39,997 nucleotides of DNA from Bilabrum cf. latius (taxonomy: Eukaryota): positions 1,178,001 to 1,217,997 of the forward strand of contig OZ237748.1 of NCBI GenBank assembly GCA_965178125.1, in the 5' to 3' direction. The number at the start of each line of letters is the position of its first letter. Position 1 is the first letter of the stretch. This document shows, piece by piece, positions 11,986 through 35,129 of the stretch. The notes under the pieces are model-generated. The model was not told where the DNA came from, did not search any database, and was given only the letters and a program-made list of their open reading frames with translations. The translations under genes and the position numbers were made by a program.

Positions 11986-12917
11986 TCGCCTTCAGTTTCA
12001 AGCACGACGTCGCCATCGCCTTCAGCTACCTCTACCTCGAGCAGCAGCTCAAGTCCGACGCCCAGCATCAGTGGCAGCAACAGCCCCAGCACCACCGCAA
12101 GCATCACTCCGTCGTCGAGCAGCAGCCCCGGCAGCAGCCCCAGCAGCAGCCCCGCTCTCAGCGGCAGCGCCAGCGCCAGTACTTCCCCCACCCCTATCTC
12201 CAACTCCCTCCTAGATGCAGCAGTTGACGGCGACGCGGACAGCGGCCTGAGCAAAAACACCATGATTGGCGTCATCATCGGCTCCATCACAGGCGGGCTG
12301 ATTGTGCTGGCGGTGGGACTGCTGGCAACTAATCGCTACTGCGGGCCCAGTCCTAGGATCAAGTAGCCCTCAAGGGGTCGCGTGACCAAGGGCAGCAAGG
12401 GAGGGAAGCAAGGCAACAGTGACCCGGTGGGGACACTGGAGGGCGGGCAGAGCTTCCAGATACAGACACCGATGGGATAGAGGTACGCAGGGGCTGCAGC
12501 AACGACATCTGCAGAGGGCAGTGGTGCAGGGGCAAGGCAGGCTAGGTCAGGAGTAGAGGGAGGACGTGGGCCCTCTTAGGGCTAATGGCGTGGGCTGGCC
12601 CCGCTCCATCAGATGCGAAGGCATAGCCGGTGAAGAGCCAGCAGCACTTGCTGCAGTACCGCTCGTCGGGCATTGGTGGGAAGTGAGAGGAAGAATGTGG
12701 CTCATCCCGGATGGAGGGACTTGTTGCGTTCATGGAAGCGGTGGCTGAATGAATGATGAGTGCGGTGCAGATTGGAAGCGGGTCCGGTGTCGTACCCGTA
12801 CGGCCTCTTCCTTTGCTATTTTTGCGGTATACTAGGAGCGTGACCACATTCATCGCGCATAGATTATCCGGATCAGGTAATGCGGCTCGAATACGGATCG
12901 AAATGAAATCATCTGAT

Positions 12918-15900
12918 TCACGCCCTGACCTGGTCCAGGTCGGCCGGATCACCCTTCCACGGGTCTAAATACCTCCCCGCCTCACGGAAAAGCCTACCCT
13001 CTACCTCACGCGAGTAGTCCCCCCGCCGCATCTGATCGTCACCAACAACGGCCAGCGAGCACATGCAGCCCCGCCTATCTACGCACAGGAACGGATCCAC
13101 CGCCCGATTACCTCTCTGCAAGCCACCTTCACCGTCACGTCGCTGTATCATGAGCGCATCATGGGCCTATGCCAATCCACGGAGGCAAGCCTCCTGCCCC
13201 AACCGCCGACCTGCCTCCTGTATCGTCTTCCTGGCCACATCCAACTCATCCATCTCGGCATGTTCATCAGAATCGCTCCCATCGCCGTCCTCCTACCCGC
13301 ACCTGCCTTTCCTCCCGCCACCACGACCTCCGCTAGAAGCCCGTAACGACGACAGCAGCCTCTGTCCTGCCACCACATGAGCCCTCGAAGGCTCCGTCAG
13401 CTCGTGCCCCACCACATGAGGCTGCTGCTTGAGCACCTCCACCAAGCATCGGGCAACCACCACCATAGCAGCGACAGGCGAAAGGCTATCAGCTTCCTTT
13501 CCGGCCTCTCGCGACTCCTGCACCCCTTCTGCTGCCCTTCCTGCTCCTGCCGCAAGTGCTCCAGCTGCTCCCCCGCCACTCCCCCTCTCGACCAGGTCCA
13601 CCGCCGACAGACACAGCAACACGCTGTCCAACACCCGGCACAGAGCACGAGCAACCTCCGGGTCTACCACGCGCACGCAGTAGCGCTGAGCCCTAACGCT
13701 CATGGCCACAGCTGCAGCAGGACTGGCCATGCTGGTGCCAGTTGCAAGGCCGATTTTGTTCGAGGGCCACAGGCAGTCAGCCAAGGTGACCTCTGTGCCA
13801 GGCTGCCACAGCTGCACGGGGGTCCCTTCACCAGCCCCATGATCAGTTGGAGGTGCCCTCAGTCCCTGAATCACCTTGGCTGCCAGCCCACCGACCGTCT
13901 CCACCAGCCGGGACGGGTCCTGCAGCCGGTCGCTCTCCTTGCCGAATGGCGCCCACTTCTAACCATACCTTAATGTACCGTCCGGTAACCGGTGCGATCG
14001 GAATTCTTCTTGACTACACGGAGCACACAATGCCATAATGGTGAGCACAACCACAATGAGCATGGGCGTCTGCTACAAGATACTGCCGATGCTAGTGCCC
14101 ACGACCGCGGTGGTTGACAGTCCGTACGCTTGGCTCGATATAACTACAACAGCCATACTGACACCAAAACCAAGCCACAGACACTATTGTAGAGCAACTG
14201 TCCACATGAAAGTATTAGGAAAGCGCTTCCAGCGCATGCCGCTCCTGCAGTCGCAGCTTGCGCCTCCCTGACAAGGCGCACTTGACGCAGGAAATGCATG
14301 GCCCTGCAGCTCGTCACGGACAGCTCCTAGTCGAACGCATCGGGCCAACGATGCCTTCCACCGCGACCAAGGCGTGCAAGACACAAGAGCAATCAAATAC
14401 AGCGAAACAGGCTACAGCCAAAACAGCACGAAAAGTGGCAGCGTGGCCAACTTGCCGACGTCGATCCCAGAATGCTTGAACCCCTCGAAACCTAGCACCA
14501 TCGACAGAGGGACACCCACGCAGAGCACCAGCAGCAGCATGGCCAGTCGAGTAGGAAGCATCGTCATCAGCATGGACCGGGGCAGCACGCCTTGCTCAGG
14601 TGCTAAAGCTGACGAGTAGAGGGTCCATCGGCCCGTCATAGGCCAATAGAGATGGTGTGCATTTGACAGCTGCTGTATCGTCTGATCCAGGCGGTTCGGG
14701 TGCGGCAGCAGCTCCAGCAGCACCGGCACTACCACGGCCAAAGAGCAATACAACGTTCCTACGGCAACGATGGCGCGCATTTGGCTGTGATCCATCGGCT
14801 CCCTGTCCCCGTATGCCGCCTCTGCTTGCACTGCCAGAGGCCTCGCCACTGCCGTCAGCAATGCCACCATGCACCAATACGTGACTGCAACTACTTGCGG
14901 GCCGACTAAAGATTGATTATAATTGGATTCTGTCACCGAGTCAGCTGGCGGATACCTGTCTAAGGAGACTAGCGGGTTAGCGCTCGTCCCTCCCCGCATG
15001 CACCCGCACATCTGCAGCACCACCGTCCATCCGATCGTGCTGGCCGACCAAGGCTCCTTCGCCCGCACACAGCTGTAGACCATTGCAGCCACCACCTGCA
15101 GTGCACCTGCAGCCAGCACCCCAAGCAACATGGAATCGATCTGAGGCACAGGATTAGCCGCGTCGGCCCACCGTAGCTACCTCGCCGCTACGTACCGGTT
15201 CCCTGTCACATGCGGATCTCTCAGCGACACACCGCAGTAGACCATGGATCGCTTGATCAAGGCCTCTGTCTCGTTCTTATTATGCAGCATGGGTATAAGC
15301 TGAAGAACGGACCCATTCCGGGGCAGCCTCACTATGGTGTTGTACTGCATGAAGCTTCCCACCGCGCTCCCGTTGTTGCCCTCTGTGAGACCCACCGATA
15401 GGGCGTTCCTCACGCACGTCTGCTGCCAGGGTCCCAGCATCAGCAGGATTGCTACCACTACTATAGCAGCACTTAGGGCACAGCGACAGCACTGGAGATG
15501 GCACAGTAGTTCTGAATGAGAGCAGCACACAGGCGGAGTATACTTGATGCCCTCTAGCCGCCCACCGTTCGCCTTGCTTGCCTCTCCCTCCCTCTCGTCG
15601 ATCAAGTCGGCCTGCTTCTCGTACCACTGGGAGAACACGTACTCGGCCGGGGTATAGGCATTAGTGGTCTGGTTCACGACGATTGGTAGTATGCGTGGAT
15701 TGCCACGGCGATCAAGATAATCCGGGGGATACTCTTGAGGGGACTATACGAGGAGGGGGGTGGCTGCAGTCGGTTGAGGTGCGAAAGCTGGTCCTGTTCC
15801 GGCAATGACGCTAGTTACAGCATCAGCAGCAGCAGCACCTCCACCATTTCTAGCACGGCTATCGACACCTCCAGCAATACCACTGCCACCGGCACTGCTA

Positions 15901-17075
15901 CCACCCCTGCCAGTGCCATACCCAGCAGCACCATGCACTCGGCCCACTTGGTTAAGAGCAGTATCCAACGAGTGCTCAACACGGCAAGTCGTGCCATGTC
16001 CCAGCCCGCTATAGCCCTATGCTCGTACGGCTGCACGCAGTCCTCGCGGGCCGCGACCCTCCTAGGCCTCCTCACAGGGCAGGGGCAGCTCCTTGATGTG
16101 GCCCGAGCGCAGCACGCAGGGGCCTTGCCTGTACCAGTAGGGCCGGAAATCAACATTTCCGACGTTTCCCCGGCAAAATGTTGGCGCTGGCTCCTGTTCC
16201 GAAAAAGCGTCTCCCGCTGACGGCGGAGAGGCCGGGAGCCCGCGCTGATCCACCAACCCATCGAGCGCCGCCAGCGCTCCCCCGCACGGGATGGCAGCGG
16301 CAGCCAGCATAGCATCTTGTCTTGCTCTCATGATGTCAGCAGCAGAAATGTCCAAGCCGTCGCCTGGTTCTGCTGCATGATCCGGATCGCCGTGTGCGCC
16401 CGCCTGCCCGCTCGACCTGCGGACCCCTTCGCCCAACACCACTAAAGGCAGTAAGTCGTCTGCTAACCTCAAGCACAGCGATCCATAAGTATCATGATCT
16501 GCATTTCTAGCCCCAAGCTCGTCGTAACTCCCTCCGGGCCCCGTGCGGGCGGTTGCACCGTCCGCCAAGCGGATACTCGGTAGGCGCTGAGGCTTGGACA
16601 TCGATATCAACGCCTGCACAAGCTCCACTCCCTGCACAACTGACTAGCGCAGCTGATGTCGGCGGGCCGTTTGATAGCTATCCTGCGTACGGCAGTCAGC
16701 ACTGAAGGTGGCTCGGCGAACGACCTCAGCAGGAGCAAGATCCGTCAACCTCATGTGAAGAGAGCAATCTGCCGACGCTGCAACTAGCGCGTTTTGGGTC
16801 CTTGTATCTAGCATTGCCATAAGGGGCTGCCGAATTCCTGTGTAAGGTAAAACATGAGCGAGACGTCCACGAGCAGGTGGAGAATGCAGCAACCACAGCA
16901 GCAAATCACTGCGGTGCATTAGGCAATACCTCACGCCGGTCTGGCACGATTCGGCTAAATGAATCCCTGCGTCCGGCTGATGCGGTACTTGAGCGCATGC
17001 TTGCCATGCTTTGCAAGGGGTTCTGGAGTGGTGATTGTCGCATGCCGAGTCTGAATTGTTGGAACCGCACCCAAC
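12918..17075 (-). CDS. Large (about 1300-1380 aa) hypothetical multi-pass membrane protein; 5' end uncertain
   Basis: Minus-strand ORFs 16644-16934, 16062-16637, 15744-15968, 15177-15677, 14412-15149, 14184-14396, 13293-13904 and 12918-13151 are all in one frame. The frame has 11 TAGs and no TAA/TGA between 12921 and 17075, and ends at TGA 12918-12920. Many hydrophobic segments at about 14000-15500. First in-frame ATG is at 16919. Confidence 0.8.
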
Positions 17076-17088
17076 TTACAGAACCCCA

Positions 17089-17964
17089 TTTGTCTCGAAG
17101 GGATCGAGGAGGGCTGCAGCGAAGGCCAAACGGGCGCTCGCAAGGGCGGTCCGGGAGGACTTTGCCAGCCTGGCTGTAGGGGCAGCCGAAAACAACAACC
17201 TCGCCGTGGCGATCGCCAACGTCAAGGCAGGGTTGGCTCAGAACGGGCAGCAGGACGGGGTGCCGGCAGCGGGCGCCGGAGGGAACGTGAACGCTGACGC
17301 TCCCCAGGGGGAAATGGGTCCCCAGGGTGGAGCTTAGGTGGTTTAGGCCATTGCAGCTGAAGCGTGAAGTCTGGTAGGTCCCGGGCCCTCGTTCCAGATG
17401 TTTCTTCGTGATAGCGTGCGCTTTTGAGTTGAGTCCACAAAATATCAGATTCCCCCCCATTGATCTCATTAGAACCCCCCCATTGATCTCTCCGTTGCCG
17501 CCTAGCACCAGCACGTGCGCGGGGAACAGCGTGTGTACCACACTATGTACTCACGGGTCATGCAGGACCACTCAAGGATCCTCGATTTTGTCTCGAAGGG
17601 ATCGAGGAGGGCTGCAGCGAAGGCCAAACGGGCGCTCGCAAGGGCGGTCCGGGAGGACTTCGCCAGCCTGGCTGTAGGGGCAGCCGAAAACAACAACCTC
17701 GCCGTGGCGATCGCCAACGTCAAGGCAGGGTTGGCTCAGAACGGGCAGCAGGACGGGGTGCCGGCAGCGGGCGCCGGAGGGAACGTGAACGCTGACGCTC
17801 CCCAGGGGGAAATGGGTCCCCAGGGTGGAGCTTAGGTGGTTCAGGCCATTGCAGCTGAAGCGTGAAGTCTGGTAGGTCCCGGGCCCTCGTTCCAGATGTT
17901 TCTTCGTGATAGCGTGCGCTTTTGAGTTGAGTCCACAAAATATCAGATCCCCCCCCATTGATCT
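17089..17964 (+). repeat. Direct duplication of 378 bp (17089-17466 and 17587-17964) carrying the 3' end of an ORF plus trailer; probable element remnant
   Basis: Offset 498 bp; three substitutions seen (17163, 17344, 17451). Encodes FVSKGSRRAAAK...GGA*VV(*/Q)AIAAEA followed by TGA. Confidence 0.85.
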
Positions 17965-18014
17965 AAAAATTATTCTGGTATTCTGGTATTCTGATCTAGG
18001 GTCGGCGCGGTCCG

Positions 18015-18549
18015 CTCGTGCCACGAGGCGACCTGTGCTTTGAGCACGAGGGGACGGCTTATCCAATCGATGTCACGGTGGTTGATTCCACTGCGGCAAC
18101 TTACCGTTGGGACCACTCGTCGTGGAGGATTGGTAGCGACTGGCAAGAGGGGTCTGCTTTGCGGGAAGCTGACCAGCTACGGCAGGCCCGTCGACCTCGG
18201 AGCGCTCGGCGTCCGGACTCCGGATCGGAGGAGAAGACAAGTGGTGTCCAGGGACTGTGAGGACCTGGTGAGGACACAGGAAGGGGCGGTGCGCAGGGGC
18301 GTGCGGGTCGTACCCTTTGTGGTGGACGTGTTCGGGGGGATCGGGGAGTAGTCGGTCAAGTTCCTGCAGGTGCTCGACAAGTTGCTGAAGATACGGTAGG
18401 AGGACAAAGTGCGGCAGGTTTCGACTGGGCCGGCCTAGCTGCTCTCAGTTGGTGAGGCCAGCAAAGTCTCTGAGATTGAGGTCGCTCGGTGGGCGCAGGA
18501 CCCGCTCGAGGAGCAGGCTCAGATGCGACGTAGCGATGCGGAGGAGTGA
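18015..18549 (+). mobile_element. Degenerate C-terminal restriction-like endonuclease (RLE) domain of a non-LTR retrotransposon (R2/CRE-type), 5'-truncated
   Basis: RGDL...IDVTVV, then after a frameshift K..SY...VVPFVVDVFGGIGE*SVKFLQVL, matching the PD-(D/E)xK RLE motif order. Three in-frame TAGs; ends at TGA 18547-18549. Confidence 0.7.
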
Positions 18550-18708
18550 GAAGGAGAGAGAATATAATATGTCTGAGTCAAAGCACACACTACCCAACTA
18601 CAACGACCACCCCAAGAGGCAATCGCGCTGGGCAGGTCGAACGGATCAGCAAGCTCACGCCATGGGCTCCGCAACAGAAGGAGAGAGAATATAATATGTC
18701 TGAGTCAA
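18549..18708 (+). repeat. 33-bp perfect direct repeat (18549-18581, 18676-18708) flanking 94 bp
   Basis: AGAAGGAGAGAGAATATAATATGTCTGAGTCAA occurs twice. Confidence 0.85.
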
Positions 18709-21700
18709 GGAGAGAGAGAGAGAGTATGGGGGCGAATGGAGGGGTTGGGGAGGGTAGAGCAAAGGGAGGGGGGGACGACGGTTCACCGGAACGGGGGAGG
18801 AAATGGTGGAGGAGACGATGATCGGTGGGGTCATTGGGTTGATGAGGCGGATAGGAAGGGGGAGGCACAGGCCGGGCAGGTGTGGGTTGGGGTATGTGTG
18901 ACGAGTGACTCGGATCAGGGGGATCGGATCACCGACCACATGCGGATGTGGAAGTTGAGAGGTCACAATTAGACTCGAGCGGCAATCAAGCCGCGTGCTA
19001 TTCGGGCGCTGAGGGGCAGCATTCGCCAGTTTTCTTATCGCGAGGCTATATTCGGGAATCGCGCGATGGACGCACAGGTTCTAATCGCCTCAGGATACGG
19101 GCCATGGCTAGCAGAGGATGGCGTAGCGAAAAAAGTATAGTATGTTGGCGTATCTACAGAATATTCGTAGATCATGAGCACGGGGAATCTGCTCCCCGAA
19201 GTCAGCCAGAGCGCAGCGATCGATTCTCCTGACTTCTCACCCAGGCTTGCACCGGGCAATGCCGTCTCAAAAGCACCAAGAAGAGATTTTCAGCAAGAAT
19301 TTGAAAGTGCTAGACGCTGTGTGGCTCCGTCGCGCGTCTATGAGCGAGAACGGGGATCTCAGTTGGAAGCTCTTGGTAACGATTTCGTGGCTGCAGCGCG
19401 CGGCATCTTTGCTGGGTTTCCCGCGGTCGAAATGTAGGATCTAGTAATTGAAATCAAGAATCGAGCAGGGCTTGTGTACAAACGTGTGCCTGCTTTGCGT
19501 TTCACGCGGGGTGACATGCAGGCCATTGAGGCTGCCACGGGAATTAGGTTCGTTGACGCTGGCGGCATTGCTGGCGGCGTGAAGGCGATCCATGAGGAAG
19601 CCGGCCTGTTCCTGAAGTTTGCCTTGGATCAGAAAGGGCTGTACGAAAGCGCAATGATGGCTGCCAAGGCCGCGAAGAGGGAGGCGGCGGCGAGCGCAAA
19701 GCTGATGGAAATGGAGAGTTTGGCATGCTCTACGCCGCTGCTCGAGTGCGTGGATCTCCGGCAGCGCTACAAAGATAGTTCCAGAACGAGAATGGTTCGA
19801 GTGTAGGTCTATGCCCGCGTGAGCGTGAGAAGCTTTCGCGCAAATGATAGCTCTTCGTGGCGAGATTCCACCCTCCGCGTCGGATCCTGCGACGGAGGAG
19901 TCACCATGCACACGGACGACGAGCAGGCGAGCGACGTGGTTAAGAGCCTCCAGTCGCAATTCTTCCTGGCGCCAAGCACGAGGAAGGTCGCAAGATTGTT
20001 CCGACACAGCATGGTTGCGGTCGAGCCCGGAGATAGTGCGGCTGGAGCCAGCAGTTCCTGCGGTGGTGACGAACCTAGTGCGTCGAGCGGGGCGGGAGCT
20101 GCCTACTGCACCACCGGAACTGAGATCCAGGACGCATCACCACCTACTGATCAGCCTAGGGGAAAAGCTGGGACTGCCGCCACTGGCGGCCGAGAGGGCG
20201 CGTGCCGAAACTTGCTCGATTTCTTAGCTCGCCACGGACTGCGCGAGCCATCCGCTGCTTTCATCCGGCAGCTGAGCGCAGACTGCCTCACCGATGGCAG
20301 GATGCAACGGAGCAGGGAACACACGGCACCGTTTTGGAGCATGCCGAGCAACGAATACAACGCCCTGGTTGCGAGGAAGACCATTGCGAAACACAGCCTA
20401 AGATTGGATCATGATATTTTGGCAAACGCGACACGGTTTGTTCACATTGTGGAGGCGCAGGAGGCTGTTGACGTCAGCCTGCCTCTACCATTCGATGTTG
20501 AAGTGCACCAGCTTGATGACGGGCAGCGCATGGTGCTGGACACGCACCGCTTGCTGCTTCCAGACGTTCTGTGGATGGATTGGGCTAGCACTCACGCAGA
20601 CGCAAAACCACGCGTGTGGATGCTGTAGCTGGAGGCTGGCGGGGGCGTCCTCAGGCGGGGTACGCTCAGAGAGTACCCGCTTTCTCACTCGCGCGAAAGA
20701 AAACCGAACTTTGAGAGGATCTCGCGGCACCTGAACGACGTGATTTGGGGAGGAAAAGGTGCAGCAGAATCGGGAGTGCTGTCTGCCTGCGGAGGCGGCG
20801 CTGTTGCTGGACCACAAGCGATACACTTTCCGGCTGACCGCATGGAGCACGACAGGGACACCGGCTCCGTTGTTGCCATTGGAATTGCTGCGCCTTTGCA
20901 CGAAGGGGGCAGTGATGCCTAGATTGGCGGCCGCCCTGAGGCCTCGGGCAGTACTGTAGCAGTGGCTGTGATATCGTGCCCGCGATGGTACTACTGTGGG
21001 AACACGTGCCTCACCTGCCTACTCCCCGCCGAGGCGGGTACTGTACTCAGTCAAACGCTCAGTGAAAGCGCTCGCCGGATCTCTCCAGATGCGGTGATGA
21101 GAGGCGATCGCACTGCAATGGAAGTCGTAAGAAAGCGCATTCGGTCACTCTACAAGACGGTCAAGAGCCAAGGCTACGGCTGGGTCCTATACAAACTCGG
21201 GAATCTCGACGAAGAACAGCTGGAGCAGAGACAGGCCTTGCGATCTATGCTCAAGAACGTGATCCACAGCTTTGGGCTCGGTCTGCGTCACGTAAGAGTG
21301 TGGCTGGAAGACGGACGCAGGAGAAAATAGCCAATGGTGGAAGAGCTGGTGCAGGCTATTGCATGTCCTCGGAGCGGCACGCTTGCGTGCGATAGCGTGG
21401 AAAGACTGCATGGCATAGTTTCGCAAGCTTTTTCTAGAATTGTGCCAGACGATGCCACGGGGTATGCAGATTCAACACAAGGTGCGATGGAATTGTCAAA
21501 CCGAATTGCGCTGGAGGCGCGTTGCTTTGCCTCGAAGGGGTTTTACGTTGGGCCTTCCATATCGCTGGATGTTCCACTCGAGCTGAACCGGCCGTATCAG
21601 CGCGATTCGTACCGGCGGTGTGCTGGCACATTCCACAGCATCACAGGAGCTACGTTGGAGTACTGCAGGAGCGGTCCTGCCAGGGCCATCGCGGAGGCGG

Positions 21701-22413
21701 CACACATGCAGAGATGCGGGGGCGACCAGATACCATCGCTGCAGATGCTGTTCGAACAGTTTTATACAGCTCCCGGCTCAGCCAGCCTAGACGTCACATG
21801 CGCCTTGATGCTTTCCAACTTGCATTTCAGCAAATTGCCGCGCACTCGGAGCATTCGCCGATGCATTAAGCTGGGTGAAACGAGTCGTCGATTCTCTCCT
21901 GCGCCGATGCGACTCTGCCACGCCTGCCGAGAATCTGGCGCGGGCTGCCCTGGCCGCTGCCGCTGAGTTTGAGGAGCGCGACCTCACAATTCTCGCTGGA
22001 CTAGGCTTGGCTCACGCATTGTCCTTGGAACGGCTGGATCGTGACGAGGAAGCATGCCGCGCGTACCGCCACTCGGAGTCTGACTGCATGGCATCGGGGG
22101 AGGCGTCCTTGGACATGCAACGCACGGCGGTACAATCGATGGTCGGACATGCCAGGTGCGTTGAGTCCTCTGGTTTACAGTAGGAAGCGTTGGCCTTGCA
22201 TCGGCGCGCGCTCGAACGTGCAGCAGCTACTCTGGGAGTGGAATCGCACGAGCATGTCGACTGTCTCATAGAAACTGCAAAGTGCCTCTGGAACTTGGAT
22301 GAAGACAGGGAGGCGCTCGAGACTGCCAGGAAAGCTTTGAATCTGGCATAGTCGATTAGTGGTCGAGTTCACGACCACCAGCTGCAGGAGCTTGACATCG
22401 TGACTTCCATGAA

Positions 22414-23157: not shown

Positions 23158-23427
23158 GAGACCACAACAAAAAGAATTCAAGACGATCTGTCAGTCCTGA
23201 GCTCTTCCACCCCGAATGGAGGCGATTGACTGGAGAAATGCCAACCTCCACTCTTCGTGGCCTGCCTCTTCCGTTAATCAGATTACGATGTCTAACGCTA
23301 CAATTCCTCTTCCCACCTACGGACAAGGTGTTGCGGCGTTCTCCTTCTTCGCAGAGCCATCCTCATCGCACAGACGCTTATCATCTCATTTGACGTCAAC
23401 AACGAATCAGACTCTGTCTCCTTAATA
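22414..23427 (-). mobile_element. 1014-bp retroelement-like insertion: about 240-bp terminal repeat followed by a truncated ORF
   Basis: Flanked by the 7-bp direct repeat CCATGAA (22407-22413, 23428-23434). TPR coding stops and resumes at its edges. 23187-23258 recurs at 1-72. Confidence 0.7.
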
Positions 23428-25674
23428 CCATGAAGCTGAAAGGCTTCGGATCACCTACCACTCCTTCCTGTCGGACGACAGCGCACAGAGCATCCACAGC
23501 CTCAAGCGATTGCTCAAAACGTAGAACAAGCTGCTTGGCCCGAGACATCCTGATTGCGCTCGCAGTCTCATCGATATCGGGCAGGCGTACGCCGATCTGT
23601 CCAAGAACGAGATTGCGCTGCGATGGCTGACGAGCGGAGCGCACGTCCGCCGGACAGCACTAGGCCCCAACGCATGGTAGCACGCGCACGACACGTTGAT
23701 TGTTGCATCCGGCCTGCGCTAGCTAGGAGGCAATGCAGAAGCGATTGCCGAGGTGAGAAGAGCCTGCTCTCTGAGCAGCAGCGCGTGGGGCGGCAAGCGA
23801 CTCAGGCGGTGCAGGTTCGTGGCCAGAGCAAGCCAGTTGCTGTGCGAGCTTGGAGACTGTGATATGGCGGCAAAGCTCGCCACAGAGAGTTATCATGCCA
23901 TAAAGGGCAAATTGGGCCCATCCTCGCCACTCTCCGCCACGTAGCTGAAAGCAGCAAGCAACAGCCTGTTGCAGGCAAAGAAGGGCGAGTTGGCTCTGGA
24001 GCTCACAAGCAAGGCGACTAAAGCTCTGCAAGATAGCACCAATGATTCGGCACCTGGCTAGGGTCTGGCGCTTGCCCAGTGCTACGGTGTACATGCAGCG
24101 TGCTTGCGGGAGCTAGGCCAGAACGAAGACGCGCTTCAATCCGACTTGCACGTCGTTGATCGGCTGGATTCGATCCGAAAATCAAAGGCAAGTAGCCGCA
24201 ACGATTGCGAAGCGGACATACTCCGGTGGGCAGAGGCTGCATATCGGCTCGCGCAGGAAGGCTTCGAAGCAAAGGGTGATTTTGAGAGCGCTCTGGCGCT
24301 GTGCCGCAGGATCCTCGACTTCGTTGCGCATCCAGGGGCATTACGCTGCGCCAGCCGCTGCCTGCGGGCGCGTGAGCAGGCCGACATGGCTGCTGAGCTG
24401 GAGGAGGAGTTTAGCTACTTGCTCGAAGAAAGTGATGACGACAGGTCGGGTGGTCTAGGGCGTGGAGGCAGCGTGACAGAGTCGAGCGATGAAGGCAGCC
24501 AGGCAAGTGATGCAAGTGATGCGAGCGAAGAAAGCGATGCCTGGCTGCGCAAGTGCGTGTCACCCAGCAGCGTCCCACTCGTGAGCGAATTCCAAGCCCA
24601 TGCAGCGATCGGTGACGCTGCAGACGAGGCCCTCGAATGTGGACAGGTCCATGAAAGCAGAAACAGCGTCGGCCCAGTTGGCGCTGGTGCCCGCGACGGT
24701 GGCCATGAGGAGGGCGCACGTGATCCTGCATACTCCGCGATTGCACTGGACGCAGCACTCGAAGCCGGTGCAGCAGATACGTTCGAATCGACCACAGACA
24801 GCTCCTCTAGACTCAGTTGCGTGGCGTCAATCAACAAGGAGGGAGAGGCTGCTGCCGGAATGTCCTTGCCGGTGGCAGAACCAGATACCTCGGAGTCTAG
24901 CTCAGACTCGGATAGCGATATGTCGGATGTATTCTGACGCATCGGGTCAATAAAAGAAAGAAATGGGGTTATTGGTTTGTTGCTGCGATCCCTTCACCTA
25001 ATCACACGTGTTAGAGCTTTCCAAGGAGTTACAGCATTTCTCGTGCAGCGGTTAGATGTTGGCGAAATGCAAATAGCGCCGGTTGCACAAAATTTTCAAC
25101 AAGATCCGTTAGCGTGACTAATCTAAACGTCACTGGAAAAAAACAACCTAAAATTTGTCCTCAATAGTTAGCGGCGGCAGCGATGCACAAAGGAAGCCAC
25201 GAAAAATATACAAAAGGGTTAGGTTTAGGGGTTAGCCCTAAGTCATGGTGGACACCGTGATCCGGATCATGACAGGGATCACTGACAACGAGACCCGCAC
25301 CATCCATGTGGATCGTGAGCACAGGGCTAGCCACCCGGTTACCTGCCCTGCCTCTGCCAGCGCGGTATTTGGTCCAAGCCGCCCTCCCGCCCCCTAGGCC
25401 CCGCTCCCCTGCTAGCTGTTTGCTGCTTGCTTTGTCGGTAAGAACTAGGCTGTGACAACCTCGGTAATGTGCGGTACACGACTAGATCTTACCCCTGCAA
25501 GATCGCATCCTGATTGAGCGCAGTCGACCAAGAGACAAATTAATGCTGCCTGGATTATGAAGTCTGTCATTTATGCTGCTAGCCGTTTTGGTCAGTTGTA
25601 GGCTATACCTCTATTTAGCTTCTATCTGAGATATATACATTCTAGCCATATCATATAAGGTGCCCACCTCCAAC

Positions 25675-25849
25675 CTGCCAACCATAACACTGCGCTTGCA
25701 ACCTCATCCATGGCGCTCACCTACGCCCTGCCAACTATCACACTACGCCTGCAACCTCATCCACGGCGTCCACTTCCGTTCTACCAACTATCACACTACG
25801 CCTCCAACTTCATCCACGGCACTCACCTGCGCCCTGCCAACCAACACAC
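25675..25849. repeat. 53-bp minisatellite, about 3.3 diverged copies
   Basis: Units starting CT(G/A)CCAAC at 25675, 25728, 25781 and 25834, abutting the first telomeric tract. Confidence 0.85.
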
Positions 25850-25850
25850 A

Positions 25851-26681
25851 GGGGGTTTAGGGGTTTAGGGGGGGGGTTAGGGGTTAGGGTTAGGGTTAGG
25901 GTTAGGGTTAGGGTTAGGGTTAGGGTTAGGGTTAGGGTTAGGGTTAGGGTTAGGGTTAGGGTTAGGGTTAGGGTTAGGGTTAGGGTTAGGGTTAGGGTTA
26001 GGGTTAGGGTTAGGGTTAGGGTTAGGGTTAGGGTTAGGGTTAGGGTTAGGGTTAGGGTTAGGGTTAGGGTTAGGGTTAGGGTTAGGGTTAGGGTTAGGGT
26101 TAGGGTTAGGGTTAGGGTTAGGGTTAGGGTTAGGGTTAGGGTTAGGGTTAGGGTTAGGGTTAGGGTTAGGGTTAGGGTTAGGGTTAGGGTTAGGGTTAGG
26201 GTTAGGGTTAGGGTTAGGGTTAGGGTTAGGGTTAGGGTTAGGGTTAGGGTTAGGGTTAGGGTTAGGGTTAGGGTTAGGGTTAGGGTTAGGGTTAGGGTTA
26301 GGGTTAGGGTTAGGGTTAGGGTTAGGGTTAGGGTTAGGGTTAGGGTTAGGGTTAGGGTTAGGGTTAGGGTTAGGGTTAGGGTTAGGGTTAGGGTTAGGGT
26401 TAGGGTTAGGGTTAGGGTTAGGGTTAGGGTTAGGGTTAGGGTTAGGGTTAGGGTTAGGGTTAGGGTTAGGGTTAGGGTTAGGGTTAGGGTTAGGGTTAGG
26501 GTTAGGGTTAGGGTTAGGGTTAGGGTTAGGGTTAGGGTTAGGGTTAGGGTTAGGGTTAGGGTTAGGGTTAGGGTTAGGGTTAGGGTTAGGGTTAGGGTTA
26601 GGGTTAGGGTTAGGGTTAGGGTTAGGGTTAGGGTTAGGGTTAGGGTTAGGGTTAGGGTTAGGGTTAGGGTTAGGGTTAGGG
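25851..26681 (+). repeat. Telomeric (TTAGGG)n tract 1, interstitial
   Basis: Perfect TTAGGG repeats with irregular first units. Confidence 0.98.
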
Positions 26682-26743
26682 TATCTAATATAAAGTCAGG
26701 GACAGGGTCGAGGAAAAAATATTTTCATCTTCATTTTTTGCAT
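26682..26743. repeat. Conserved telomere-junction leader, copy 1
   Basis: TATCTAATATAAAGTCAGGGACAGGGTCG...TTTTCATCTTCA.TTTTTG recurs at 29101 and 38078, each directly after TTAGGG. Confidence 0.9.
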
Positions 26744-27820
26744 CAAAATACGGAATTGAGATCTCGGCAACCAGAGTAGATATGAAGATGATTCAAACTG
26801 CATTGGGTCGGTCCTGGGGCACAACATGGGGCAAAATTTTATTAGGATCCGTTTTTGTCGCGCGGCGCCGATATGGCCGGATGAAGAATTTCGTGGACCA
26901 AAATACGGAATTGAGATCTCGGCAACCAGAGTAGATATGAAGATGATTCAAACTGCATTGGGTCGGTCCTGGGGCACAACATGGGGCAAAATTTTATTAG
27001 GATCCGTTTTTGTCGCGCGGCGCCGATATGGCCGGATGAAGAATTTCGTGGACCAAAATACGGAATTGAGATCTCGGCAACCAGAGTAGATATGAAGATG
27101 ATTCAAACTGCATTGGGTCGGTCCTGGGGCACAACATGGGGCAAAATTTTATTAGGATCCGTTTTTGTCGCGCGGCGCCGATATGGCCGGATGAAGAATT
27201 TCGTGGACCAAAATACGGAATTGAGATCTCGGCAACCAGAGTAGATATGAAGATGATTCAAACTGCATTGGGTCGGTCCTGGGGCACAACATGGGGCAAA
27301 ATTTTATTAGGATCCGTTTTTGTCGCGCGGCGCCGATATGGCCGGATGAAGAATTTCGTGGACCAAAATACGGAATTGAGATCTCGGCAACCAGAGTAGA
27401 TATGAAGATGATTCAAACTGCATTGGGTCGGTCCTGGGGCACAACATGGGGCAAAATTTTATTAGGATCCGTTTTTGTCGCGCGGCGCCGATATGGCCGG
27501 ATGAAGAGTTTCGTGGACCAAAATACGGAATTGAGATCTCGGCAACCAGAGTAGATATGAAGATGATTCAAACTGCATTGGGTCGGTCCTGGGGCACAAC
27601 ATGGGGCAAAATTTTATTAGGATCCGTTTTTGTCGCGCGGCGCCGATATGGCCGGATGAAGAATTTCGTGGACCAAAATACGGAATTGAGATCTCGGCAA
27701 CCAGAGTAGATATGAAGATGATTCAAACTGCATTGGGTCGGTCCTGGGGCACAACATGGGGCAAAATTTTATTAGGATCCGTTTTTGTCGCGCGGCGCCG
27801 ATATGGCCGGATGAAGAATT
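26744..27820. repeat. 155-bp satellite, subfamily A, about 7 copies
   Basis: Period 155 (ORF starts 26826, 26981, 27136...); copies are nearly identical. Confidence 0.97.
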
Positions 27821-28068
27821 GCTTGTCTCTGTAGAATGCATTGTGGATTCGTCAATTGTAGAATGGGTATTGTGTACATGACCGTTGTATTCGATTGATG
27901 GATTGCTTTGACTTAAGGTATTCATCGGCTGACAGCCAAGACTAAACAGAATGCCTCTTGGCTCCTACTATTCCGTCCTAACGGGTCACTGGCTGGCACT
28001 TTGGCAAGCTCCTCTCACAAGCTGGCCCAGCTGCCACTGACCTCAATTGCCATCCGCCTGGCTGCTTT

Positions 28069-28266
28069 TCACTCGTCATCGGAGGAGGGTTCCGCACCGA
28101 CAGCTGCCAGGAGCGCCTCCACAGCGTCCACGTCTGCCGCATTGAGATCTCCTTCCGCCGTCTTCTCGAGGGCCGTCATCAGGTCTGCGAGCATGCCCAA
28201 TCCGTGGTCCCTCTCTGCAATTGTTTCCTGCACGTCCTCGACCATGTCGTCGACAGTCCGGCTGAC
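28069..28266 (-). pseudogene. 5'-truncated paralog (last about 65 codons) of the 33594-35129 gene, capped by telomeric repeats
   Basis: 27916-28266 aligns to 33441-33791. Reads VSRTVDDMVEDVQETIAERDHGLGMLADLMTALEKTAEGDLNAADVDAVEALLAAVGAEPSSDDE then TGA. Confidence 0.9.
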
Positions 28267-29100
28267 TTAGGGTAAGGGTTAGGGTTAGGGTTAGGGTTAG
28301 GGTTAGGGTTAGGGTTAGGGTTAGGGTTAGGGTTAGGGTTAGGGTTAGGGTTAGGGTTAGGGTTAGGGTTAGGGTTAGGGTTAGGGTTAGGGTTAGGGTT
28401 AGGGTTAGGGTTAGGGTTAGGGTTAGGGTTAGGGTTAGGGTTAGGGTTAGGGTTAGGGTTAGGGTTAGGGTTAGGGTTAGGGTTAGGGTTAGGGTTAGGG
28501 TTAGGGTTAGGGTTAGGGTTAGGGTTAGGGTTAGGGTTAGGGTTAGGGTTAGGGTTAGGGTTAGGGTTAGGGTTAGGGTTAGGGTTAGGGTTAGGGTTAG
28601 GGTTAGGGTTAGGGTTAGGGTTAGGGTTAGGGTTAGGGTTAGGGTTAGGGTTAGGGTTAGGGTTAGGGTTAGGGTTAGGGTTAGGGTTAGGGTTAGGGTT
28701 AGGGTTAGGGTTAGGGTTAGGGTTAGGGTTAGGGTTAGGGTTAGAATTAGGGTTAGGGTTAGGGTTAGGGTTAGGGTTAGGGTTAGGGTTAGGGTTAGGG
28801 TTAGGGTTAGGGTTAGGGTTAGGGTTAGGGTTAGGGTTAGGGTTAGGGTTAGGGTTAGGGTTAGGGTTAGGGTTAGGGTTAGGGTTAGGGTTAGGGTTAG
28901 GGTTAGGGTTAGGGTTAGGGTTAGGGTTAGGGTTAGGGTTAGGGTTAGGGTTAGGGTTAGGGTTAGGGTTAGGGTTAGGGTTAGGGTTAGGGTTAGGGTT
29001 AGGGTTAGGGTTAGGGTTAGGGTTAGGGTTAGGGTTAGGGTTAGGGTTAGGGTTAGGGTTAGGGTTAGGGTTAGGGTTAGGGTTAGGGTTAGGGTTAGGG
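28267..29100 (+). repeat. Telomeric (TTAGGG)n tract 2, interstitial
   Basis: Perfect repeats except TAAGGG near the start and TTAGAA at 28741. Confidence 0.98.
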
Positions 29101-29161
29101 TATCTATTATAAAGTCAGGGACAGGGTCGGGGAAAAATATTTTCATCTTCACTTTTTGACA
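29101..29161. repeat. Conserved telomere-junction leader, copy 2
   Basis: Near-identical to 26682-26743 and 38078-38139. Confidence 0.9.
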
Positions 29162-30813
29162 AAATCCTGCGGGATACGATCTCGGCAACCACAGGAGATA
29201 TGAAGACCGTTCAAATTGCGTTGGGACGGCCTAGGGCCACATCATTGGCCAAATGTTCCTCAGGTTCCGCTTTTGACGCGCGGCGCCAATATTGGGCCTT
29301 GAAGATTTTCATGCTGAAATCCTGCGGGATACGATCTCGGCAACCACAGGAGATATGAAGACCGTTCAAATTGCGTTGGGACGGCCTAGGGCCACAACAT
29401 TGGCCAAATGTTCCTCAGGTTCCGCTTTTGACGCGCGGCGCCAATATTGGGCCTTGAAGATTTTCATGCTGAAATCCTGCGGGATACGATCTCGGCAACC
29501 ACAGGAGATATGAAGACCGTTAAAATTGCATTGGGACGGCCTAGAGCCACATCATTGGCCAAATGTTCCTCAGGTTCCGCTTTTGACGCGCGGCGCCAAT
29601 ATTGGGCCTTGAAGATTTTCATGCTGAAATCCTGCGGGATACGATCTCGGCAACCACAGGAGATATGAAGACCGTTCAAATTGCGTTGGGACGGCCTAGG
29701 GCCACATCATTGGCCAAATGTTCCTCAGGTTCCGCTTTTGACGCGCGGCGCCAATATTGGGCCTTGAAGATTTTCATGCTGAAATCCTGCGGGATACGAT
29801 CTCGGCAACCACAGGAGATATGAAGACCGTTCAAATTGCGTTGGGACGGCCTAGAGCCACATCATTGGCCAAATGTTCCTCAGGTTCCGCTTTTGACGCG
29901 CGGCGCCAATATTGGGCCTTGAAGATTTTCATGCTGAAATCCTGCGGGATACGATCTCGGCAACCACAGGAGATATGAAGACCGTTCAAATTGCGTTGGG
30001 ACGGCCTAGGGCCACATCATTGGCCAAATGTTCCTCAGGTTCCGCTTTTGACGCGCGGCGCCAATATTGGGCCTTGAAGATTTTCATGCTGAAATCCTGC
30101 GGGATACGATCTCGGCAACCACAGGAGATATGAAGACCGTTCAAATTGCGTTGGGACGGCCTAGAGCCACATCATTGGCCAAATGTTCCTCAGGTTCCGC
30201 TTTTGACGCGCGGCGCCAATATTGGGCCTTGAAGATTTTCATGCTGAAATCCTGCGGGATACGATCTCGGCAACCACAGGAGATATGAAGACCGTTCAAA
30301 TTGCGTTGGGACGGCCTAGGGCCACAACATTGGCCAAATGTTCCTCAGGTTCCGCTTTTGACGCGCAGCGCCAATATTGGGCCTTGAAGATTTTCATGCT
30401 GAAATCCTGCGGGATACGATCTCGGCAACCACAGGAGATATGAAGACCGTTCAAATTGCGTTGGGACGGCCTAGGGCCACATCATTGGCCAAATGTTCCT
30501 CAGGTTCCGCTTTTGACGCGCGGCGCCAATATTGGGCCTTGAAGATTTTCATGCTGAAATCCTGCGGGATACGATCTCGGCAACCACAGGAGATATGAAG
30601 ACCGTTAAAATTGCATTGGGACGGCCTAGGGCCACATCATTGGCCAAATGTTCCTCAGGTTCCGCTTTTGACGCACGGCGCCAATATTGGGCCTTGAAGA
30701 TTTTCATGCTGAAATCCTGCGGGATACGATCTCGGCAACCACAGGAGATATGAAGACCGTTCAAATTGCGTTGGGACGGCCTAGGGCCACAACATTGGCC
30801 AAATGTTCCTCAG
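29162..30813. repeat. 155-bp satellite, subfamily B, about 10.7 copies
   Basis: Period 155; shares GATCTCGGCAACCA, AGATATGAAGA, TTCAAA and CGCGCGGCG blocks with subfamilies A and C. Confidence 0.97.
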
Positions 30814-30849
30814 ATTCATTGTACTTCATTCAGTGCAAGTATGGCGTAT

Positions 30850-33331
30850 TGAAACCTACTCGGGGGAGGTTTCAAAACCTACCCAGGGCGGTTTCAAAAC
30901 CTACCCAGGGCGGTTTCAAAACCTACCCAGGGCGGTTTCAAAACCTACCCAGGGCGGTTTCAAAACCTACCCAGGGCGGTTTCAAAACCTACCCAGGGCG
31001 GTTTCAAAACCTACCCAGGGCGGTTTCAAAACCTACCCAGGGCGGTTTCAAAACCTACCCAGGGCGGTTTCAAAACCTACCCAGGGCGGTTTCAAAACCT
31101 ACCCAGGGCGGTTTCAAAACCTACCCAGGGCGGTTTCAAAACCTACCCAGGGCGGTTTCAAAACCTACCCAGGGCGGTTTCAAAACCTACCCAGGGCGGT
31201 TTCAAAACCTACCCAGGGCGGTTTCAAAACCTACCCAGGGCGGTTTCAAAACCTACCCAGGGCGGTTTCAAAACCTACCCAGGGCGGTTTCAAAACCTAC
31301 CCAGGGCGGTTTCAAAACCTACCCAGGGCGGTTTCAAAACCTACCCAGGGCGGTTTCAAAACCTACCCAGGGCGGTTTCAAAACCTACCCAGGGCGGTTT
31401 CAAAACCTACCCAGGGCGGTTTCAAAACCTACCCAGGGCGGTTTCAAAACCTACCCAGGGCGGTTTCAAAACCTACCCAGGGCGGTTTCAAAACCTACCC
31501 AGGGCGGTTTCAAAACCTACCCAGGGCGGTTTCAAAACCTACCCAGGGCGGTTTCAAAACCTACCCAGGGCGGTTTCAAAACCTACCCAGGGCGGTTTCA
31601 AAACCTACCCAGGGCGGTTTCAAAACCTACCCAGGGCGGTTTCAAAACCTACCCAGGGCGGTTTCAAAACCTACCCAGGGCGGTTTCAAAACCTACCCAG
31701 GGCGGTTTCAAAACCTACCCAGGGCGGTTTCAAAACCTACCCAGGGCGGTTTCAAAACCTACCCAGGGCGGTTTCAAAACCTACCCAGGGCGGTTTCAAA
31801 ACCTACCCAGGGCGGTTTCAAAACCTACCCAGGGCGGTTTCGAAACCTACCCAGGGCGGTTTCAAAACCTACCCAGGGCGGTTTCAAAACCTACCCAGGG
31901 CGGTTTCAAAACCTACCCAGGGCGGTTTCAAAACCTACCCAGGGCGGTTTCAAAACCTACCCAGGGCGGTTTCAAAACCTACCCAGGGCGGTTTCAAAAC
32001 CTACCCAGGGCGGTTTCAAAACCTACCCAGGGCGGTTTCAAAACCTACCCAGGGCGGTTTCAAAACCTACCCAGGGCGGTTTCAAAACCTACCCAGGGCG
32101 GTTTCAAAACCTACCCAGGGCGGTTTCAAAACCTACCCAGGGCGGTTTCAAAACCTACCCAGGGCGGTTTCAAAACCTACCCAGGGCGGTTTCAAAACCT
32201 ACCCAGGGCGGTTTCAAAACCTACCCGGGGCGGTTTCAAAACCTACCCAGGGCGGTTTCAAAACCTACCCAGGGCGGTTTCAAAACCTACCCAGGGCGGT
32301 TTCAAAACCTACCCAGGGCGGTTTCAAAACCTACCCAGGGCGGTTTCAAAACCTACCCAGGGAGGTTTCAAAACCTACCCAGGGAGGTTTCAAAACCTAC
32401 CCAGGGAGGTTTCAAAACCTACCCAGGGCGGTTTTTCAAAACCTACCCAGGGAGGTTTCAAAACCTACCCAGGGAGGTTTCAAAACCTACCCAGGGAGGT
32501 TTCAAAACCTACCCAGGGCGGTTTCAAAACCTACCCAGGGCGGTTTCAAAACCTACCCAGGGCGGTTTCAAAACCTACCCAGGGCGGTTTCAAAACCTAC
32601 CCAGGGCGGTTTCAAAACCTACCCAGGGCGGTTTCAAAACCTACCCAGGGCGGTTTCAAAACCTACCCAGGGCGGTTTCAAAACCTACCCAGGGCGGTTT
32701 CAAAACCTACCCAGGGCGGTTTCAAAACCTACCCAGGGCGGTTTCAAAACCTACCCAGGGCGGTTTCAAAACCTACCCAGGGCGGTTTCAAAACCTACCC
32801 AGGGCGGTTTCAAAACCTACCCAGGGCGGTTTCAAAACCTACCCAGGGAGGTTTCAAAACCTACCCAGGGAGGTTTCAAAACCTACCCAGGGAGGTTTCA
32901 AAACCTACCCAGGGAGGTTTCAAAACCTACCCAGGGAGGTTTCAAAACCTACCCAGGGAGGTTTCAAAACCTACCCAGGGCGGTTTCAAAACCTACCCAG
33001 GGCGGTTTCAAAACCTACCCAGGGCGGTTTCAAAACCTACCCAGGGCGGTTTCAAAACCTACCCAGGGCGGTTTCAAAACCTACCCAGGGCGGTTTCAAA
33101 ACCTACCCAGGGCGGTTTCAAAACCTACCCAGGGAGGTTTCAAAACCTACCCAGGGCGGTTTCAAAACCTACCCAGGGAGGTTTCAAAACCTACCCAGGG
33201 AGGTTTCAAAACCTACCCAGGGAGGTTTCAAAACCTACCCAGGGAGGTTTCAAAACCTACCCAGGGAGGTTTCAAAACCTACCCAGGGAGGTTTCAAAAC
33301 CTACCCAGGGAGGTTTGAAACCTACCCTAGG
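30850..33331. repeat. 22-bp tandem array GGTTTCAAAACCTACCCAGGG(C/A), roughly 110 copies
   Basis: Head-to-tail units with no spacers; the 22-aa periodicity of the spurious ORFs equals three units. Confidence 0.97.
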
Positions 33332-33593
33332 TGTGGGTTTGGGAATCCAGTGGTTATTGACCGATATTCAATGTTGTGGCTCGTTCTACGTAGCCATATG
33401 TATGCGTTAACCTCCTTGGTCGATACATCGCTTTGACATCAGGTATTCGTTGGCTTATAGTCAAGACTAAATAGATTGCGTCCTGGCTCCTACTATCCCG
33501 TCCTAACGGGTCACTGGCTGGCACTCTGGCAAGCTCCTCTCACAAGCTGGCCCAGCTGCCACTGACCTCAATTGGTATCCGCCTGGCTGCTTT

Positions 33594-35129
33594 TCACTCG
33601 TTATCGGAGGAGGGTTCCGCATCGACAGCTGCCAGGAGCGCCTCAACAGCGTCCACGTCTGCTGCATTGAGATCTCCTTCCGCCGTCTTCTCGAGGGCCG
33701 TCATCAGGCCTACGAGCGTGCCCAACCCGTCGTCCCTCTCTTGAATTGTTTCCTGCACGTCCTCGAGCATGTCGTCGAGAGTTCGGCTGACGCCCAGCGC
33801 TATGTCATCGCAGGCAGCGAGGATGCGGTCCACCAGGTGCCGCTGCTAGTCGGTGAAGCCGTTGTCATCCACTCCACCGTCGTTCTCAGAGTCGTCTTGC
33901 TGGTTCTGGGCCTCGTTCTCTTCTTCCTCATCCAGCTCGTCCTGATCCTCCTCGTCCTGCTGCACGAGTTCTATCGGAGCCTCATCCTCGTCCTCTTCAT
34001 CGGCTGCGTCTGCGTGGTATCGATCACCGATCTCCTCTTCATCCTCCTCAGAGTCCTGTCGAGGCAGTGATGCTGCTGCTCCACTCCTTGCGCCTCTTGC
34101 TCCCCTCTTGTCCTGGCCAACGGCGTGGCGAGCTCCTCCGCCATAGCCCGGTTGGAGAATGGGCGATCGCTTGTGCTGTATCTTAGCCCGAGGTGCCGCT
34201 TCAGTCGCCTTCCTGCGCTCCGGTTCTGCCGGTTGCGCACCTTCATCCCTCGGCTTTCCCTTTGACTTTCCCTTTGACTTGCCCGCGGCCTTGGTCCTGG
34301 CCTTCAATTTGGCCTTTGCCTTTTCCCTGGCCTTGGCCTCCGCTCTCCGCTTGGGGCCGAGTAGGTCGTTGTTCAGTCGCTCGGTCTATGAGTCGCTGGA
34401 CTCTGAGCCGTCTGAATCTTGCTCGCCTCGTTTCCTCTGGGCCTTGTAGGCACTGTGGTCCGCGACACCGTCGTCGGGGTCGTCCTCGTCGTCGTCGACC
34501 ATGGCACTCCGTTTGTCCTTGCCAGCACGGGGTGCTCCACTCGGCGAAGCAGCAGCGGCTCCCGCAGAAGCATCTTGGTCCCCTGCGGCTGCCGCGGCAG
34601 AGTCCTTGACTGCCATGTCAAACACGTCTTGGAACACAGCCTGCATGCCTCCACGCGCACGCACAGAGGCTTTCCCAGCTCCGTAGTCGCAGACGAACTT
34701 GATCGCGGTCTTGTAGTTCCTCCGCAAGCCATCCATGCCTGCCTTGAACCAAGGATTGTGGCTGGTAGAGTAGCCGCTGTCGCGCAGGCCCATGAGCATC
34801 TAATTCATCTTGCGGTAGCCTGGCGAGCTGGTGCCGCTAGTTGATGCAGCCGGATATAGGCGGTGACTCAGCACCTTCAGCATGTCAGGCGGCAGATCGG
34901 ACTCATTCAGGTCCAGCATGGCATCCACGCAGGCTTTGATGCCCTCTTTCTTGGTCCCCTAGTAGTGCTCGGTAGACCCGCAGAGTAACCCGCAATCTTG
35001 GTGGAGGCCCACGAGGGAGATCAGCAGGACTTGCTTGGCAGCAGACGTGCTGACGCCTGAAGCCAGGGCAGCCACGACGGGGCGGGAGGCCTTGGTGTGC
35101 TTGACGCTGTAGCTCTTTGCGGCGGCCAT
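33594..35129 (-). CDS. Hypothetical 511-aa protein: helical N-terminal domain, basic Lys/Ala region, acidic region, coiled-coil-like C-terminus
   Basis: ATG at 35129 (MAAAKSYSVKH...). Four in-frame TAGs (34959, 34800, 34386, 33846) join ORFs 34959-35291, 34386-34799, 33846-34307 and 33594-33833; ends at TGA. A paralogous fragment at 28069-28266 keeps the frame. Confidence 0.85.

Follow-up and report, generated by a model that had tools for sequence, protein, structure and literature searches.

The stretch of DNA analysed here (hereafter the window) comprises 39,997 bases of contig OZ237748.1, from the Bilabrum cf. latius assembly GCA_965178125.1, and its GC content ranges from 0.48 to 0.68. 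Since it combines TTAGGG arrays with spliceosomal introns, it is a eukaryotic nuclear chromosome end with its subtelomere. The genetic code used by the genes of the window is the subject of this work: their long frames are interspersed with UAG, which seems likely to be an ordinary sense codon, and are free of UAA and UGA. The original prediction, made from the sequence of the window, had mentioned a TTAGGG telomere and introns of roughly 190 nucleotides (nt). The telomere is present, in terminal and interstitial arrays; no introns of that length were seen, one of 97 nt being verified and a second, of 421 nt, being proposed from the sequence. When open reading frames (ORFs) are listed with TGA and TAA alone as stops, the main features of the window are the following:

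2525-6483, plus strand: gene A, made up of two overlapping frames, 2525-5086 (5 TAG) and 4675-6483 (3 TAG, TAA end at 6481-6483).
7074-11564, plus strand: exon 1 of gene B; the frame opens at 7074, contains 3 in-frame TAG and no TAA or TGA, and stops at a codon boundary before GTGAGT.
11565-11985, plus strand: putative intron of gene B; 421 nt, GT..AG, phase 0, with GTGAGT at the 5' end and a polypyrimidine tract and CAG at the 3' end.
11986-12585, plus strand: exon 2 of gene B, in which the Ser/Thr/Pro stalk continues and gives way to a transmembrane helix and a tail; probable terminator TAA at 12583-12585.
12918-16820, minus strand: coding sequence of gene D; 1,300 codons, ATG at 16820, TGA at 12918-12920, 11 in-frame TAG.
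16838-16934, minus strand: intron in the 5' leader of gene D; 97 nt, GT..AG (CT..AC on the plus strand), absent from one contig of dataset X5 (joint 16836/16934).
18577-21966, plus strand: first long frame of a CLU-domain gene; 1,129 codons, 8 TAG, Pfam CLU 3.3e-8.
21809-22507, plus strand: further part of the CLU-domain gene, TPR-like and in the next frame; 2 TAG.
23426-24937, plus strand: ORF with TPR and an acidic tail, beyond a high-copy repeat; 503 codons, 5 TAG, TGA end at 24935-24937, TPR_12 1.6e-11.
33594-35345, minus strand: gene F; 4 TAG, TGA end at 33594-33596, 511 codons when counted from a Met near 35129.
25874-26682, 28267-29101, 35582-35695 and 37753-38078: four interstitial TTAGGG-type arrays.
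39395-39997, plus strand: terminal TTAGGG-type telomere array.

The long frames of the window (853, 602, 1,512, 1,385, 1,129, 503 and 583 codons) contain from 3 to 11 TAG codons each. Over eight ORF segments, totalling 6,104 in-frame codons, TAG was counted 40 times and TAA and TGA were not found at all; the same segments contain 47 CAA and 157 CAG (CAA thus making up 23% of CAA+CAG), and the GC content of their third codon positions (GC3) is 0.6-0.78. The prediction had spoken of 40 or more TAG and no TAA, which agrees with this count, part of which (genes A and B) lies to the left of the range considered at that time. The background frequencies of the three triplets were obtained from both strands of positions 1-25600, where TGA, TAA and TAG occur 678, 191 and 437 times, respectively. 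TGA and TAA together account for 1.7% of all trinucleotides and TAG for 0.85%, so that a random frame would be expected to meet TGA or TAA once per ~59 codons and TAG once per ~117. A frame of 1,385 codons free of TGA and TAA, such as that of gene D, is not expected by chance. Its 11 TAG codons compare with ~12 expected from the background and, because TAG matches the background while TGA and TAA are absent, TAG behaves as an unconstrained codon and the other two triplets as excluded ones.

The relatives of the CLU-domain frame were studied together with the window. An exhaustive HMMER search with this frame gave 100 proteins at E <= 1e-3, 56 at <= 1e-10 and 9 at <= 1e-30, mostly short fragments from metagenome or run assemblies, the closest homologues being 89-467 residues long. 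A distant full-length homologue, P0024, falls into a CLU cluster whose commonest records are from Euglenozoa, but P0024 has no special closeness to the clade studied here and carries no taxonomic weight; the corresponding query with another homologue, P0004, gave no match above 0.79. A word-index search with the CLU ORF produced no matches at near lengths, and a trimmed alignment of the conserved CLU block, scanned against genome contigs and viral contigs, found no relatives there. The same trimmed alignment retrieved five metagenome contigs (L001-L005). In L003, positions 438-5696 form an unbroken frame of 1,752 codons with 19 TAG and a TGA end, and matches to CLU and several TPR families are distributed along its length. 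L005 has a frame of 826 codons with 6 TAG, L004 one of 813 codons with 8 TAG, and L001 carries two ORFs, of which the SET-domain one has 5 TAG and the CLU one 4. Since the five contigs share the pattern of the window, the trait belongs to a clade rather than to a single assembly. When the 5,089 codons of these relatives are pooled with those of the window (15 ORF segments and 11,193 in-frame codons), the tally is 87 TAG, 0 TAA and 0 TGA. Because TGA and TAA served to mark the limits of the pooled ORFs, and the frames chosen were those in which these triplets were scarcest, the absence of TAA is in part a matter of construction. Three checks stand apart from the definition of the ORFs: a test of sequence context, the homology-supported frame of L003 and the CAA:CAG ratios.

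For the context test, each TAA or TAG, in any frame, with 60 TGA-free codons on either side was collected, both triplets themselves being scored as zero. The coding score exceeded 5 on both flanks at 26 of the 224 TAG sites and at none of the 62 TAA sites. A search for in-frame TAA at conserved Gln positions, which would have pointed to an ordinary code with both codons reassigned, thus yielded none, either in coding context or among the 11,193 pooled codons. If TAA followed TAG in the proportion in which CAA follows CAG, the window should contain 12.0 TAA and the relatives 32.5; the probabilities of finding none are 2.8e-5 and 1.9e-11, respectively. The extent of the L003 frame is independent of the definition of stops, because homology supports it along its length. 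This frame has a GC3 of 0.52 and contains 38 CAA, 33 CAG, 18 TAG and 0 TAA in the codon tally. The prediction had been qualified by the caveat that high GC3 lowers the frequency of TAA; since CAA exceeds CAG in L003 and TAG is nevertheless found 18 times and TAA never, the absence of TAA is not accounted for by GC bias. The split in meaning between UAG and UAA is therefore well supported, and the core of the prediction, that UAG is recoded and UAA is not, is strengthened by the five related metagenome loci.

The residue encoded by UAG was evaluated at 10 informative TAG sites, defined as those at which no fewer than 5 of 10 flanking positions agree with the relatives. At residue 410 of the CLU frame of the window, 15 of 19 relatives have Gln; the TAG at residue 173 of L002 faces Gln in 17 of 42 sequences and that at residue 951 of L003 in both of the two available. 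The weighted share of Gln over the 10 sites is 3.9, that of Leu 1.4. In mean BLOSUM62 score per site, Gln reaches +1.21 and is followed by Glu with -0.27, all residues but Gln being negative; Ser scores -0.43 and Leu does not figure among the six best, the lowest of which is -0.52. In a control with 60 sense codons, resamples of 10 sites recovered the true residue in 99.4% of cases, a figure that is somewhat favoured by the fact that a sense residue aids its own alignment. Gln is thus probably the best reading of UAG, from a small sample of sites, and UAG would make up ~16-20% of the Gln-type codons.

The ends of eight ORFs were examined. Six terminate at TGA (gene D, the TPR ORF, gene F, a repeat ORF, the CLU ORF of L003 and the SET ORF of L001) and two at TAA, of which that of gene B is good and that of ORF 4675-6483, whose coding score fades ahead of its end, is doubtful. 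None of them requires TAG as its end. The TGA ends previously proposed at 12918-12920 (gene D, minus strand), 18547-18549, 24935-24937 and 33594-33596 (gene F, minus strand) were all placed correctly, and so was the single TAA terminus: TAA occupies 12583-12585 and is preceded by a TAG at 12577-12579, with one codon in between. In the second exon of gene B, TAG is found 73, 35 and 2 codons ahead of the stop, the 3' end reading TAG-GGC-TAA (12577-12585), and the next in-frame TGA lies 16 codons past the TAA. Near-terminal TAG codons are also found elsewhere: the last TAG lies 2, 2 and 5 codons ahead of the stop in gene B, the CLU ORF of L003 (5688-5696) and the SET ORF of L001 (1555-1572), respectively, that is in 3 of 8 ORFs as compared with ~0.3 expected. 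One possibility is that these UAG codons once terminated translation, which now passes through them to a backup stop close by; on this reading, the TAA of gene B would be functional as a stop. With the TAA ends of gene B and of the doubtful ORF, UAA seems likely to be a working terminator. The homologue P0004 had appeared to end at the TAG of window residue 684; this candidate was rejected, as P0004 continues 18 residues further.

Transcripts probably provide a further line of evidence. Two contigs of dataset X5, corresponding to positions 12973-15075 and 15054-16836, include every one of the 11 TAG of gene D and show 0 differences; the second is devoid of the 97-nt leader intron. Because the deletion coincides precisely with a GT..AG intron, X5 is more likely to be RNA, and it is probably so.

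It is directly supported that UAG occurs within long, homology-supported and probably transcribed frames, that UAA and UGA are absent from them, and that Gln is the best-fitting residue. The explanation that we consider likely is that, in this organism and its environmental relatives, UAG is an ordinary sense codon, most probably for Gln, that UGA is the main terminator, and that UAA is kept out of coding sequences and most likely still terminates. A transfer RNA (tRNA) with the anticodon CUA reads UAG and not UAA, and eRF1 must lose its recognition of UAG for such a change (PMC5304391). By this mechanism, a predicted tRNA-Gln(CUA) would pair with UAG but not with UAA, the recognition of UAG by eRF1 would be weakened and that of UAA and UGA kept, and UAA would act as a terminator.

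Several points weigh against this explanation. The columns conserved enough to name a residue cover only ~10 of the 87 TAG sites, and two of the TAG codons concerned, at residue 583 of L003 and residue 497 of L001, face mainly Pro. The near-terminal TAG codons could be cases of UAG still terminating at gene ends. The role of TAA as a terminator comes down to one good case, gene B, where read-through to the TGA 16 codons further on is possible. The label of the X5 dataset reads "RNA? (probably DNA)", none of the runs being labelled outright as RNA, and a tRNA scan of the window and the five metagenome loci found 0 genes, with eRF1 likewise absent. Finally, the CLU copy of the window has a +1 frame change and lies amid subtelomeric repeats, and some of the window genes may be decaying.

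Several alternative scenarios may be considered. In the first, UAA is neither a sense codon nor a working stop: eRF1 would be specific for UGA, tRNA(CUA) would act alone, and UAA would be unassigned or avoided, as an intermediate toward a full code in which both UAR codons (UAA and UAG) mean Gln. The predominance of TGA, at 6 of 8 ORF ends, is in line with this scenario, as are the in-frame TGA downstream of the gene B TAA and the fading coding score of the ORF that ends with the TAA at 6481-6483. Nevertheless, the GC is ~0.6 and TGA outnumbers TAA by 3.5:1 in the background, so that a set of eight ends should in any case include few TAA, and the position of the gene B TAA, 2 codons past a TAG and comparable to that of the L003 TGA past its last TAG, fits a functional backup stop maintained by selection. 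An unassigned UAA is thus unlikely. Alternatively, UAG could be context-dependent, a sense codon inside genes and a stop near their 3' ends, as in Condylostoma and Blastocrithidia (PMC5304391). This would account for the excess of near-terminal TAG codons, seen in 3 of 8 ORFs, but former UAG terminators read through to a backup stop predict the same pattern. Moreover, the known context-dependent codes affect all three stops or both UAR codons, whereas UGA and UAA are found 0 times in 11,193 codons here, which makes this possibility quite improbable. A third scenario, in which UAG encodes another residue, namely Leu (known from Rhizaria sp. exLh), Ser (reported for Scotinosphaera), Glu, Pro or Tyr, draws on the 2 of 10 informative sites that face mostly Pro, on single sites with Leu or Cys, and on a mean Gln score that is lower at TAG sites (1.21) than at CAG sites (2.29). 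Yet Gln alone has a positive mean, the control named the correct residue in 99.4% of its resamples, Gln occupies the two columns of highest conservation, and Pro is a single-base neighbour of Gln (CAG/CCG); a residue other than Gln is accordingly a very doubtful reading.

Two further scenarios are contradicted by the data. A code in which both UAR codons mean Gln (NCBI table 6 type), with TAA made rare by the high GC3 and low CAA share of the window, is at odds with the L003 tally, with the probabilities of finding zero TAA in the window and in the relatives, and with the 0 of 62 TAA in coding context. The absence of any code change, the TAG codons being due to decay of subtelomeric pseudogenes, C-to-T mutation or editing of UAG to CAG in the mRNA, could appeal to the subtelomeric site, the CLU frame change and the high-copy repeats inserted nearby, but decay or C-to-T mutation should equally have turned CAA into TAA and CGA into TGA, and there are 0 of either as compared with 87 TAG. 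In addition, 5 independent metagenome contigs show the pattern again, and the X5 contigs, one of which lacks the leader intron, retain all 11 TAG of gene D, which speaks against editing.

The individual genes of the window call for some comments. Gene A contains an HExxH metalloprotease-like region with a marginal Pfam match to Peptidase_M11 (5.5e-5). The first exon of gene B encodes a Cys-rich EGF/teneurin-like extracellular protein (Pfam EGF_TEN 9.8e-7), and the Ser/Thr/Pro-rich reading runs on across the proposed exon joint. The view that the TAA-ended ORF 11920-12585 is mis-framed, the opposite strand having the usual GC pattern over the three codon positions, was rejected on the basis of the splice sites and the protein reading. 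The product of gene D is a multi-pass membrane protein, and a search for its homologues at shorter lengths gave 2 fragments, both from one contig. Gene F encodes an acidic/basic low-complexity protein. A Pfam scan assigned no family to gene D, gene F, the repeat ORFs or the telomere-adjacent ORF, and Rfam families, those of rRNA included, were likewise 0 in the window and the five metagenome loci.

In the CLU-domain gene, the TPR-like continuation is reached only via a +1 frame change near 21830-21845, where there is no room for an intron; the same gap-free sequence is found in X4 and X5 contigs, the X5 contig spanning 21167-22422. The L003 homologue is uninterrupted over 1,752 codons; the frame change in this subtelomeric paralogue may be a pseudogene lesion. 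The CLU/TPR gene is further interrupted by a high-copy repeat at ~22430-23400. The CLU-like family of this clade (window positions 19510-19803 and the relatives) has an invariant MAAKAAKREAAAS block, which canonical CLU proteins presumably do not have, and it may be a lineage-specific paralogue rather than the orthologue of CluA/TIF31.

The segments 6000-7300, 16464-19079 and 22350-23657, in which the word depth of run X4 rises up to ~4,800 from a baseline of ~52, are dispersed repeats present in roughly 10-90 copies. In runs X5, X6 and X7, whose organism labels are unlike those of X1-X4, neighbouring genes are found at 95-100% identity and there is no cover over 7308-11885 (gene B) or 23658-25600 (the TPR ORF); should the runs be RNA, these gaps could reflect differences in expression, and should they be DNA, differences between strains. 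Within the subtelomere (25674-33327 and 38139-38942), blocks alternate between TTAGGG arrays (134-139 units), a satellite and a 22-bp unit. The 155-bp satellite lies between the telomeric arrays in 7, 11 and 5 copies, and the 22-bp unit is repeated 112 times at 30852-33327. An ORF on the plus strand at 35957-38089, GC-rich, with ~590 codons and an acidic C-terminus, runs directly into the interstitial TTAGGG array at 37753, and looks like a gene that was truncated by telomere healing and later buried by subtelomere duplication.

With respect to known codes, this organism adds another carrier to a rare type already described, the UAG = Gln pattern of Iotanema and NCBI table 15. UAA and UAG nearly always change meaning jointly, and no more than a handful of nuclear lineages have been reported to separate them (PMC5304391, PMC11687900). 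Reassignment of UAG alone has been reported in Iotanema spirale (Gln), a rhizarian (Leu), Scotinosphaera (Ser), and Protocruzia and phyllopharyngean ciliates (Gln or Leu) (PMC5304391, PMC11687900). In Iotanema spirale (Fornicata), UAG encodes Gln and both UAA and UGA are stops, with 104 UAA as compared with 15 UGA (PMC5304391). The likeness to the present case extends to a UAG sense codon that best fits Gln, the lack of in-frame UAA and UGA, and the same predicted tRNA-Gln(CUA) and altered eRF1. They differ in that UAA is the main terminator in Iotanema, whereas TGA is found here at 6 of 8 ends in a GC-rich sequence with TTAGGG telomeres; for Iotanema, the available data are those of a transcriptome (PMC5304391).

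In phyllopharyngean ciliates and Protocruzia tuzeti (NCBI table 15), UAG encodes Gln and UAA is the stop in 93.5-100% of C-terminal alignments (PMC11687900). These ciliates resemble the present organism in that UAG alone has passed to Gln and is distributed over gene bodies in the manner of a further codon synonymous with those for Gln, with UAA retained as a stop in the ciliates. In contrast, the TTAGGG telomeres, the GC of ~0.6, the long multi-gene chromosome end and the spliceosomal introns of the window are unlike a ciliate macronucleus. Ciliates are not known to have telomeres of the TTAGGG type and, together with the GC content and the genome style, this excludes a ciliate as the source of the window. 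Codes that treat UAG otherwise match less well. Rhizaria sp. exLh is a non-ciliate protist in which UAG and UAA are also split and UAA and UGA are stops, but its UAG encodes Leu (PMC5304391). Such a UAG = Leu code, also known from phyllopharyngean metagenome-assembled genomes, does not agree with the weighted 1.4 Leu as compared with 3.9 Gln at the 10 sites, nor do codes that recode all three stops or depend on context, as in Condylostoma and Blastocrithidia, agree with the 0 TGA and 0 TAA of the pooled frames. In the green alga Scotinosphaera, UAG is reported to encode Ser, with UAA as a stop (PMC11687900). The UAG-only reassignment in a non-ciliate is shared with our case, and the marginal Peptidase_M11 (gametolysin) match of gene A (5.5e-5) would suit a green alga, but here Ser scores -0.43 per site and Gln +1.21.

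Amoeboaphelidium belongs to an opisthokont lineage with TTAGGG-type telomeres. It resembles the present organism in the recoding of a stop to Gln, and its small genome and parasitic lifestyle could explain a presence in differently labelled runs. In Amoeboaphelidium protococcarum both TAG and TAA encode Gln (PMC6299283, PMC5304391), and the genome has a GC content of 40.5% (PMC10608142). Since the GC is ~0.6 here and no in-frame TAA is found, Amoeboaphelidium was excluded as the source.

No published GC-rich eukaryote with UAG = Gln was found in the literature searched, which excluded most subscription journals and supplements. We tentatively propose, as the prediction had suggested for the origin of the code, that this GC-rich TTAGGG lineage and its environmental relatives could have reached UAG = Gln independently of ciliates and fornicates, UGA carrying out nearly all termination, UAA perhaps being barely used, and former UAG stops lying 1-4 codons ahead of backup stops. 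If this were true, the lineage would offer a genome-level view of the uncoupling of UAG and UAA.

For the annotation of this organism and its relatives, the practical consequence is that standard-code gene callers will fragment every gene, which matches the fragmentary state (89-467 residues) of the closest homologues. A further carrier of this code would be useful in view of its chromosome-level GC-rich assembly, its relatives in several metagenomes and its mainly UGA-based termination. It would open to study the tRNA(CUA) and eRF1 genes, to which neither Iotanema nor the rhizarian exLh gave access, and would add an independent data point on the constraints that couple UAG and UAA.

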